From Escherichia coli (GTDB lineage: Bacteria > Pseudomonadota > Gammaproteobacteria > Enterobacterales > Enterobacteriaceae): 64,000 bases of DNA. The position numbers and the translations under genes were made by a program. This document shows, in pieces, positions 1,236-1,904 of the stretch (position 1 is its first letter; each line of letters starts with the position of its first letter). Below the pieces are notes generated by a model. That model did no database searches, was not told where the DNA came from, and saw nothing but the letters and a program-made list of their open reading frames with translations. Location: the NCBI RefSeq assembly GCF_003334335.1, contig NZ_QOWQ01000012.1, one strand, 5' to 3'.

Positions 1236-1904
1236 ATGCCCGTCAAGGATTTGACGGGCATTACTGCAAAGGACGCGCAAATGTTATCTGTAGTTAAACC
1301 TCTTCAGGAATTTGGTAAGCTCGATAAATGTTTGTCCAGATACGGTACGCGCTTCGAGTTTAATAATGAAAAGCAAGTTATATTTTCCAGTGATGTCAAT
1401 AACGAAGATACTTTCGTTATTTTAGAGGGAGTTATCTCTCTGCGTAGAGAAGAAAACGTACTTATCGGTATTACCCAGGCTCCTTATATTATGGGGCTGG
1501 CTGATGGTTTAATGAAAAACGATATACCATACAAATTAATATCAGAAGGAAATTGTACGGGATATCATCTACCAGCCAAACAAACCATTACGCTTATTGA
1601 ACAAAATCAACTCTGGCGAGACGCTTTTTACTGGTTAGCCTGGCAAAATAGAATTCTGGAATTACGCGACGTGCAGCTCATTGGGCATAATTCCTACGAA
1701 CAAATCCGCGCAACATTATTATCAATGATTGACTGGAATGAAGAATTGCGATCACGTATTGGTGTGATGAATTATATCCATCAACGTACACGCATATCGC
1801 GTTCTGTCGTCGCAGAAGTTCTCGCTGCTTTGCGTAAAGGCGGCTATATCGAAATGAATAAAGGCAAACTGGTCGCTATCAACCGTTTGCATTCAGAGTA
1901 TTAA
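1236..1904 (+). CDS. yaiV: putative transcriptional regulator YaiV (possible CRP/FNR-like C-terminal helix-turn-helix)
   Basis: 222-aa ORF from the track; C-terminal segment RTRISRSVVAEVLAALRKGGYI resembles a helix-turn-helix. Start is uncertain: a 9-bp-stem hairpin (1238-1259) overlaps the first codons and a second in-frame ATG lies at 1281. Confidence 0.7.
   Translation: MPVKDLTGITAKDAQMLSVVKPLQEFGKLDKCLSRYGTRFEFNNEKQVIFSSDVNNEDTFVILEGVISLRREENVLIGITQAPYIMGLADGLMKNDIPYKLISEGNCTGYHLPAKQTITLIEQNQLWRDAFYWLAWQNRILELRDVQLIGHNSYEQIRATLLSMIDWNEELRSRIGVMNYIHQRTRISRSVVAEVLAALRKGGYIEMNKGKLVAINRLHSEY

Follow-up and report, generated by a model that had tools for sequence, protein, structure and literature searches.

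The described systems closest to the element reported here are intrinsic terminators, the stem-loops of the hp1 type in the ompA 5′ untranslated region (UTR), and the paired CsrA/RsmA sites of the glgC, cstA and hcnA type. It is well established that stem-loops at the 5′ terminus stabilize Escherichia coli mRNAs. The CsrA/RsmE consensus, CANGGANG, is displayed in the loop of a hairpin, and paired CsrA sites are typically 10-63 nt apart. The element in question is a stem-loop, hereafter hairpin 2, located in the 87-nt spacer between ehaB/yaiT and iprA (yaiV, b0375), 41 nt past the ehaB/yaiT stop and on the same strand. It was analysed in a stretch of 64,000 nucleotides of E. coli DNA (RefSeq assembly GCF_003334335.1, contig NZ_QOWQ01000012.1), the whole of which is referred to as the window; positions are those of the window.

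Hairpin 2 shares with intrinsic terminators a GC-rich stem of 9-13 bp, a loop of 4-6 nt, AAUGCC...GGCAUU(U) flanks that are able to extend the stem, a site past the stop of a same-strand gene, selection at the RNA level and, in many orthologues, a run of U residues. It differs from them in the sub-threshold U-tract of the E. coli copy (AUUACUGC), in the Shine-Dalgarno (SD) sequence only 6 nt away and in its conserved loop. If the promoter deduced from genomic SELEX (systematic evolution of ligands by exponential enrichment) is used, the hairpin would open the transcript at its extreme 5′ end and be followed by an SD in single-stranded form, as in the ompA-type stem-loops; of that class, however, one would expect neither the U-runs of the orthologues nor a distribution complementary to that of an upstream terminator. 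To the paired CsrA/RsmA sites the locus is alike in a loop GGA, whose context CA(A/C)GGAU resembles the consensus, and an SD GGA 24 nt away, but the loop GGA is missing in several genera that keep the hairpin.

Hairpin 2 is formed by gcccgtcaa (1238-1246), the loop ggat (1247-1250) and ttgacgggc (1251-1259). A preliminary description of this DNA had given a 9-bp stem at 1238-1259, with exactly these letters and positions; the stem is actually longer and comprises 13 Watson-Crick pairs, from T1234-A1263 to A1246-T1251. The same description had the hairpin begin 2 nt after an ATG at 1236. The location is right, though the G of this ATG is itself the first base of the 9-bp stem and the entire ATG lies inside the full 13-bp stem. 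The fold energy, suggested there as a check, was −20.4 kcal/mol for 1234-1263 on the + strand, compared to a shuffle mean of −4.5 (z = −7.7), and none of 200 shuffles folded as well. The core 1238-1259 alone gave −14.9 kcal/mol and the − strand −21.9 kcal/mol. Hairpin 2 is the longest perfect inverted repeat with a loop of 3-8 nt in the window. Perfect hairpins with a stem of at least 9 bp amount to 8 distinct ones in 15 stem/loop registers, as against 1.9 ± 1.6 registers in dinucleotide shuffles, while stems of at least 12 bp occur in the window only at hairpin 2 and in none of 30 such shuffles. The ribosome-binding site of iprA begins 6 nt past the stem, and the hairpin leaves the real SD and start codon uncovered.

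When six other E. coli strains were aligned, the region from about 1230 to 1283 was identical in all save one strain, which carries an IS1 insertion sequence (IS) in the loop. In E. coli 23AR0998, IS1 is inserted in the hairpin loop (equivalent of about 1247), the 5′ arm and everything upstream are gone, and iprA is annotated as intact. E. coli 23AR0998 is a natural hairpin-knockout strain.

The spacer DNA of an orthologue set of 80 loci, one per species, was examined for conservation of the hairpin. The alignment consists of 43 distinct sequences with a 12-pair helix and covers Escherichia, Citrobacter, Salmonella, Raoultella, Intestinirhabdus, Trabulsiella, Kluyvera, Phytobacter, Kosakonia, Yokenella, Buttiauxella, Atlantibacter and Franconibacter. 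In these, 95.5% of the helix cells are paired; the figure falls to 84.7% when columns are shuffled and to 29-43% when the register is slid. Both sides have changed in 9 of the 12 pairs (47 cells). The observed pairing, covariation score and double-change counts were matched by 0 of 500 shuffles, and the count of further pair types by 3 of the 500. RNAalifold recovers the identical helix. The arms appear as GCCCGUCA, GCCCGCCA, UCCCGCCA, GCCCACCA, GCCUGUCUC and GCCCAUCC across the orthologues, each with its matching partner. Where only one side of a core pair has changed, the result is G-U or U-G on the + strand (10 cells in about 9 separate lineages), the single exception being an A-C beside the loop. 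A G-U pair on the + strand is an A-C mismatch on the other strand or in duplex DNA; these changes thus favour an RNA made from the + strand. A covariance model of the hairpin scored 63.4 bits on the + strand and 29.9 on the − strand. Hairpin 2 is a conserved, selected RNA structure on the + strand.

No second strong copy of the hairpin was found with the covariance model in the 64-kb window; the next best match, at 18 bits, is the terminator between yajD (+) and tsx (−). The spacer of these convergent genes contains, at 37871-37897, a perfect 11-bp hairpin, AAATGCCGGGA-ataaa-TCCCGGCATTT, that looks like a bidirectional terminator. This hairpin (AAAUGCCGGGA...UCCCGGCAUUUU) has the same AAAUGCC...GGCAUUU build as hairpin 2. 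Comparison with Rfam families over 1000-2000 gave chance-level matches only (E at least 1; 17-23 bits against gathering cut-offs of 49-100), and in the literature no paper describing hairpin 2 was found. Hairpin 2 is a small stem-loop of a familiar kind, a terminator or leader hairpin, and not a new class.

The position of the hairpin relative to the start of IprA had been described as ambiguous, with the hairpin overlapping the start codon. The premise rests on an obsolete start at 1236, and the question was already settled when the annotation was moved from 1236 to 1281 in 2014. The 2006 K-12 record has the yaiV start at 393685 in U00096.2, equivalent to window 1236; in the 2014 record the start lies 45 nt further downstream, at 394506 in U00096.3, equivalent to window 1281 (PMC4909307). 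In ribosome profiling with tetracycline as inhibitor (TetRP; Nakahigashi et al., Table S3, PMC4909307), yaiV is assigned to class '3. 2014: signal at 2014 initiation site' and is 1 of 12 genes for which manual inspection placed the TetRP signal only at the new site. The published profiling check, which the preliminary description had proposed, hence falls at 1281 and not at 1236. Among the E. coli K-12 start re-annotations of 2014 (EcoGene, U00096.3), yaiV with its +45 nt shift is an ordinary, already known member, from which it shows no difference. The RefSeq start is the equivalent of window 1281 in every E. coli record examined (MG1655, REL606, UPEC 536 and three other strains). ATG 1281 lies 15 codons (45 nt) past ATG 1236 in the same frame, and no stop intervenes; the translation of the open reading frame (ORF) bears out this second ATG, and the suggestion that the real YaiV might be 15 residues shorter is correct by the 2014 annotation, RefSeq and ribosome profiling alike.

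The properties of the two codons agree with this assignment. At ATG 1281 the anti-SD duplex energy is −5.3 kcal/mol, within the top 11% of ATGs in the window. ATG 1236 has no SD (anti-SD −2.8 kcal/mol, 42nd percentile), and its probability of being unpaired is 0.01, i.e. it is 99% paired. The NCBIfam IprA equivalog NF008810 aligns over its entire profile (1-207 of 207) to residues 16-222 of the long ORF, at 454 bits against a cut-off of 359. Among the full-length homologues listed (about 70-100% identity), nearly all have 207 residues, and more distant ones mostly 203-208. The 207-residue form begins MLSVVKPLQEF... and the 222-residue form MPVKDLTGITAK.... It is as good as certain that IprA (YaiV) starts at ATG 1281, with 207 residues, and that the upstream ATG is non-coding. 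The correction was known and the short start is already in RefSeq, so that the annotation is unchanged.

Some database proteins of 222-223 residues start MPVMDMTGI... or MPVMQMAGI..., compared to MPVKDLTGI in E. coli. The preliminary description had proposed the conservation of codons 1-15 among orthologues as a check, and conserved N-terminal residues, together with initiation at 1236, as grounds for giving up the shorter protein. Neither the frame nor the start is conserved. Of the 49 orthologous loci that have hairpin 2, 24 carry the stem ATG in a different frame from iprA and 7 carry none; in 3 a stop separates it from iprA, and in 15, 6 of them Escherichia, it is both in frame and open. 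In E. albertii, the closest sister species, an in-frame stop, TAG, lies at −12 between the stem ATG and iprA. The frame is kept in few loci; the upstream codons are therefore not coding sequence. The residue test would mislead, since MPV..TGI is kept in some orthologues as RNA stem only. An example of such mimicry is the change from AAG...TTG to ATG...ATG, in which a single base pair has flipped from A-U to U-A. The MPV..TGI similarity is a by-product of the conserved RNA stem. As a matter of method, frame conservation and not residue likeness is the proper test for an upstream in-frame ATG that lies over an RNA stem.

As to what the structure does, a leaky terminator-type boundary element between ehaB and iprA is ranked first, at somewhat short of an even chance. 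Hairpin 2 would stop, or protect at the 3′ end, most transcripts leaving ehaB/yaiT, and iprA would be expressed only by read-through or from a promoter firing at or inside the hairpin. The U-tract of the E. coli copy (AUUACUGC) appears to have decayed, and weak termination would be expected from it. The build is that of a roughly symmetrical terminator: the stem is rich in GC, and sequence rich in A on its 5′ side is matched by sequence rich in U on its 3′ side. U-tails were scored with the usual cut-off of 2.5. Across the 43 orthologues the median score is 3.09, within the top 8% or so of window positions; it is at least 2.5 in 35 of the 43 and at least 3.5 in 8. Kluyvera and Enterobacter sp. 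kpr-6, at 5.0, have canonical U-tails, as do C. gillenii at 4.4 and Phytobacter, Kosakonia and Yokenella at 3.5-3.8; for comparison, neighbouring terminators of the canonical type reach 5.28. The tails on the minus strand are about equal (orthologue median 3.0, E. coli 3.0). The Enterobacter/Lelliottia group is without hairpin 2 and has a canonical strong terminator directly past the ehaB stop. This presence of a terminator after ehaB where hairpin 2 is missing fits a need for at least one terminator between both genes.

Several observations weigh against a terminator at this site. The E. coli tail AUUACUGCA has 3 U in 9 nt and scores 2.48, just below 2.5, and the consensus terminator scan gives no call at hairpin 2. 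The 3′-end map of PMC7815308 has no yaiV/iprA entry, only yaiT-antisense and ampH-internal ones, and the Cappable-seq and SMRT-Cappable-seq supplements list no transcription start site (TSS) at these coordinates. There is no room for a promoter between hairpin 2 and the SD, so that a strong terminator would silence iprA, which is translated in K-12 despite the splitting of yaiT by IS3. In the Escherichia/Citrobacter/Salmonella group a near-invariant TTTAAT lies 7-9 nt upstream of the stem, and RNA polymerase (RNAP) binds the spacer in vitro (PMC3946193); a transcript starting at the hairpin fits these two better than one ending there. The GGAU loop is as conserved as the stem in Escherichia, Citrobacter and Salmonella, and a plain terminator needs no such loop. 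The element is taken to be leaky rather than strong because of the poor E. coli tail, the absence of a scan call and the translation of iprA in K-12. The terminator-like element for the upstream remnant that the preliminary description had offered as one possibility is plausible by build and position, and is the leading candidate; the poor E. coli U-tract and the silent scan speak against it.

The next candidate, tentative and clearly behind the leaky terminator, is that the promoter TTCACT-18-TTTAAT fires at about 1235 and that the iprA mRNA opens with the hairpin, leaving 0-2 unpaired nucleotides at the 5′ end. With the same reserve, such a 5′-terminal hairpin, a classic means of protection of this kind, would shield the message from RppH and from RNase E decay that depends on the 5′ end, and would lengthen the half-life of iprA mRNA instead of ending ehaB transcripts. 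The promoter hexamers are those given for a 'constitutive promoter' peak that genomic SELEX with RpoD holoenzyme located between yaiU and yaiV (yaiU>yaiV), where an H-NS site is also listed (PMC3946193); with TTTAAT as −10, +1 would be set near 1235, at the base of hairpin 2. The TTTAAT box lies within an AT-rich block and is nearly invariant in the Escherichia/Citrobacter/Salmonella group. In 21 spacers of this group, its distance to the stem base is fixed at 7-9 nt. K-12 translates iprA although yaiT is interrupted by IS3 1.5 kb upstream, which requires a nearby promoter, and the weak U-tract of the same group suits a hairpin that does not terminate. Against this promoter, its hexamers were picked by sequence, with a poor −35 and, in TTTAAT, no A at the key position −11, and a promoter scan by consensus called nothing at 1199-1228. 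The boxes most like a −10 in Buttiauxella and Atlantibacter (TATAAT, GATTAT) are 1-3 nt from the stem, which would put +1 inside the 5′ arm. A 5′-terminal hairpin also gives no reason for the U-runs of canonical type that follow the stem in Kluyvera, Phytobacter and Yokenella, or for the loss of the hairpin beside a strong upstream terminator. The roles of terminator and 5′-terminal stem-loop are compatible, and both may hold.

It is improbable, more so than a 5′-terminal role, that hairpin 2 is one half of an operator of the CsrA type, or for another RNA-binding protein, made of the loop GGA (GUCAAGGAUUUGAC) and the SD GGA. By the same improbable account, a CsrA dimer bridging both GGA sites would block ribosome binding and repress translation of IprA. 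The geometry is the textbook one for repression by CsrA: one GGA occupies 1247-1249 in the loop and another, within the SD (AAAGGAC), 1271-1273, 24 nt apart, with the SD in the loop of a mini-stem, and both CAAGGAU and CACGGAU resemble CANGGANG. The entropy of the GGAU loop columns is 0-0.55 bits (21 sequences), as against 0.7-1.7 bits for the flanks and closing pair. The loop GGA is present in 26 of the 43 orthologues, including Phytobacter, Kosakonia and Franconibacter with changed stems. The mini-stem around the SD is also conserved, with GC in 18 of 21 and CG in 20 of 21 in the RNAalifold consensus of the Escherichia/Citrobacter/Salmonella spacers. On the other hand, Trabulsiella, Yokenella, Buttiauxella, Atlantibacter and Kluyvera have loops without GGA; with GGA-less loops in five genera, GGA cannot be what the hairpin was originally kept for. 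Nor is it rare for a purine-rich tetraloop to contain GGA when an SD does so too. No yaiV, iprA or b0375 was found in those parts of the E. coli CsrA supplements on cross-linking and immunoprecipitation (CLIP) and ribosome profiling that could be consulted (Potts 2017, PMC5694010), and a full-text search for CsrA with iprA returned one review that names both and draws no link. A shade less probable still is a combined form, in which the invariant GGAU loop and the SD mini-hairpin would be the two sites of an operator bound by CsrA or some other RNA-binding protein, while the stem-loop doubles as the ehaB terminator. If true, the operator would set IprA translation and tie the Csr carbon-storage/stress circuit to the control that IprA exerts on catalase, RpoS-linked peroxide resistance and fimbriae.

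A double-stranded DNA operator, with the inverted repeat serving as a palindromic site for a dimeric regulator (IprA, FNR or other) over the iprA promoter or TSS, is very unlikely. A perfect 13-bp palindrome does stand directly upstream of the gene of a CRP-like winged-helix protein, FNR binds near yaiV in the absence of H-NS and StpA (PMC3688515), and TTGACgggcATTAC matches TTGAT-N4-ATCAA at 7 of 10 positions by eye. The half-sites, however, vary by compensatory substitutions (GCCCGTCA, GCCCGCCA, TCCCGCCA, GCCCACCA, GCCTGTCTC, GCCCATCC), the spacing of the arms varies with loops of 3-8 nt, and the one-sided G-U changes on the + strand are mismatches in DNA. The recognition region of IprA is invariant over the same species (S173 R174 S175 V176 A178 E179 ...) while the palindrome changes, and the inner half-sites are in everted order relative to the FNR box. 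Least probable of all is a real 222-residue protein started at 1236, its translation throttled by the hairpin to give two isoforms: nothing interrupts the E. coli frame from 1236 onward, some pipelines still call forms of 222-223 residues and a TSS at 1235-1236 would make the AUG 5′-terminal and leaderless, but the profiling signal is reported at the 2014 site only (PMC4909307), and the SD-less, 99% paired ATG, the unconserved frame, the E. albertii stop and a family profile that begins at residue 16 all speak against it.

A few further ideas were rejected. A separate leader peptide or upstream ORF fails, as the 1236 frame enters iprA without a stop. With TTGACG (1251-1256) as −35, a promoter would lack a −10 at the required 16-18 nt. 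An RNase III site would need a longer duplex, and the E. coli U-tail is too poor for an Hfq-type small RNA from the ehaB 3′ UTR. For a promoter in the A-rich 5′ flank, with iprA transcripts starting in the stem, the −10 matches are weak and inconsistent, and C. gillenii keeps the pairing and loses AAT.

The features of the locus are collected in Table 1.

Table 1. Coordinates of genes, signals and predicted elements around the ehaB/yaiT-iprA spacer.
Feature	Position	Strand	Remarks
yaiT/ehaB 3′ part (autotransporter gene; seaB/STM0373 in Salmonella)	1..1193	+	stop TAA 1191-1193
Hairpin 1, weak, AU-rich, UUCUUC-acucc-GAAGAA	1196..1212	+	just past yaiT stop; predicted fold
Predicted sigma-70 promoter, TTCACT (1199-1204) - 18 nt - TTTAAT (1223-1228)	1199..1228	+	hexamers assigned from sequence
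Predicted CyuR-binding motif GAAGAAATACTGGTAATTTAATC	1207..1229	+	motif scan in PMC11408624
Hairpin 2	1234..1263 (core 1238-1259)	+	13-bp stem, GGAU loop; conserved RNA stem-loop
ATG of obsolete 2006 start (222-residue form)	1236..1238	+	within stem; not a start codon
3-bp mini-stem (1265-1267 with 1275-1277)	1265..1277	+	loop displays SD AAAGGAC; thermodynamically weak
Shine-Dalgarno AAGGA of iprA	1269..1273	+	7 nt before ATG 1281; conserved in orthologues
iprA (yaiV, b0375) coding sequence	1281..1904	+	207 residues plus stop; CRP-like protein, winged-helix domain
ampH	1905..3062	−	convergent with iprA; stop codons abut

The window is of E. coli K-12-like sequence, and adding 393,225 to a window position gives the corresponding position in NC_000913.3. 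ORF 66-1193 ends ...GVKYTW*. The RefSeq label for this part is yaiT fragment 2 or EhaB, yaiT being a pseudogene. The ehaB/yaiT gene is found upstream of iprA in almost all of the 80 orthologous loci, and the ehaB/seaB gene is placed upstream of iprA also in bioRxiv 10.64898/2026.01.14.699485. RefSeq NP_414909.2 at 394506-395129 corresponds to window 1281-1904, and Pfam HTH_46 matches residues 153-218. A perfect 9-bp inverted repeat, AATAACGAA-gatact-TTCGTTATT, is present at 1398-1421 within the iprA coding sequence.

The arms of hairpin 1 co-vary by eye in Citrobacter and Salmonella (TTCTC/GAGAA, TTTCTC/GAGAAA, TTCCTC/GAGGAA). At its position, Enterobacter, Phytobacter, Trabulsiella and Kluyvera have a GC-rich hairpin that ends in a U-run and resembles a canonical terminator, and some genera carry tandem hairpins before iprA. 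In Rahnella laticis a different hairpin, GGCATACTTCACA-aggc-TGTGAGTATGCC, is found about 45-75 nt upstream of the iprA homologue, and the order of its GGCAT/ATGCC motifs is opposite to that of the enterobacterial element. E. coli strains are polymorphic at 1216-1221, with a CT deletion at 1216-1217 or a change of GGTAAT to GGTTAT or GATTAT, within the predicted CyuR motif and beside the TTTAAT box. Cysteine induces yaiV 4.5 log2-fold (PMC11408624).

At the other end of iprA there is zero spacer between its stop (1902-1904) and that of ampH (1905-1907). With abutting stops, ampH transcripts must therefore run antisense into iprA. The sole terminator-like site given by the scan near this junction is weak and lies on the − strand at 1884-1871, within iprA. 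Position 1891 (codon 1890-1892) is A in the window and C in MG1655, REL606 and all 5,409 matching complete E. coli records, and over 1860-1925 there are 0 records 100% identical to the window. The A changes CCT to CAT, which is P204H near the C-terminus of IprA, in a column that is at least 90% Pro among 14 diverse homologues. P204H is a private variant of the source strain or a sequence alteration. In E. coli O139:H1 W13-16, an IS3-family element splits iprA, and two pseudogene fragments are annotated.

Hairpin 2 is an ordinary finding, a well-supported stem-loop plus a lead on the regulation of iprA. Loss of iprA reportedly raises resistance to H2O2 by several logs. IprA is a poorly understood regulator, and the covarying stem-loop between ehaB and the iprA ribosome-binding site is an obvious place for the control of iprA expression.

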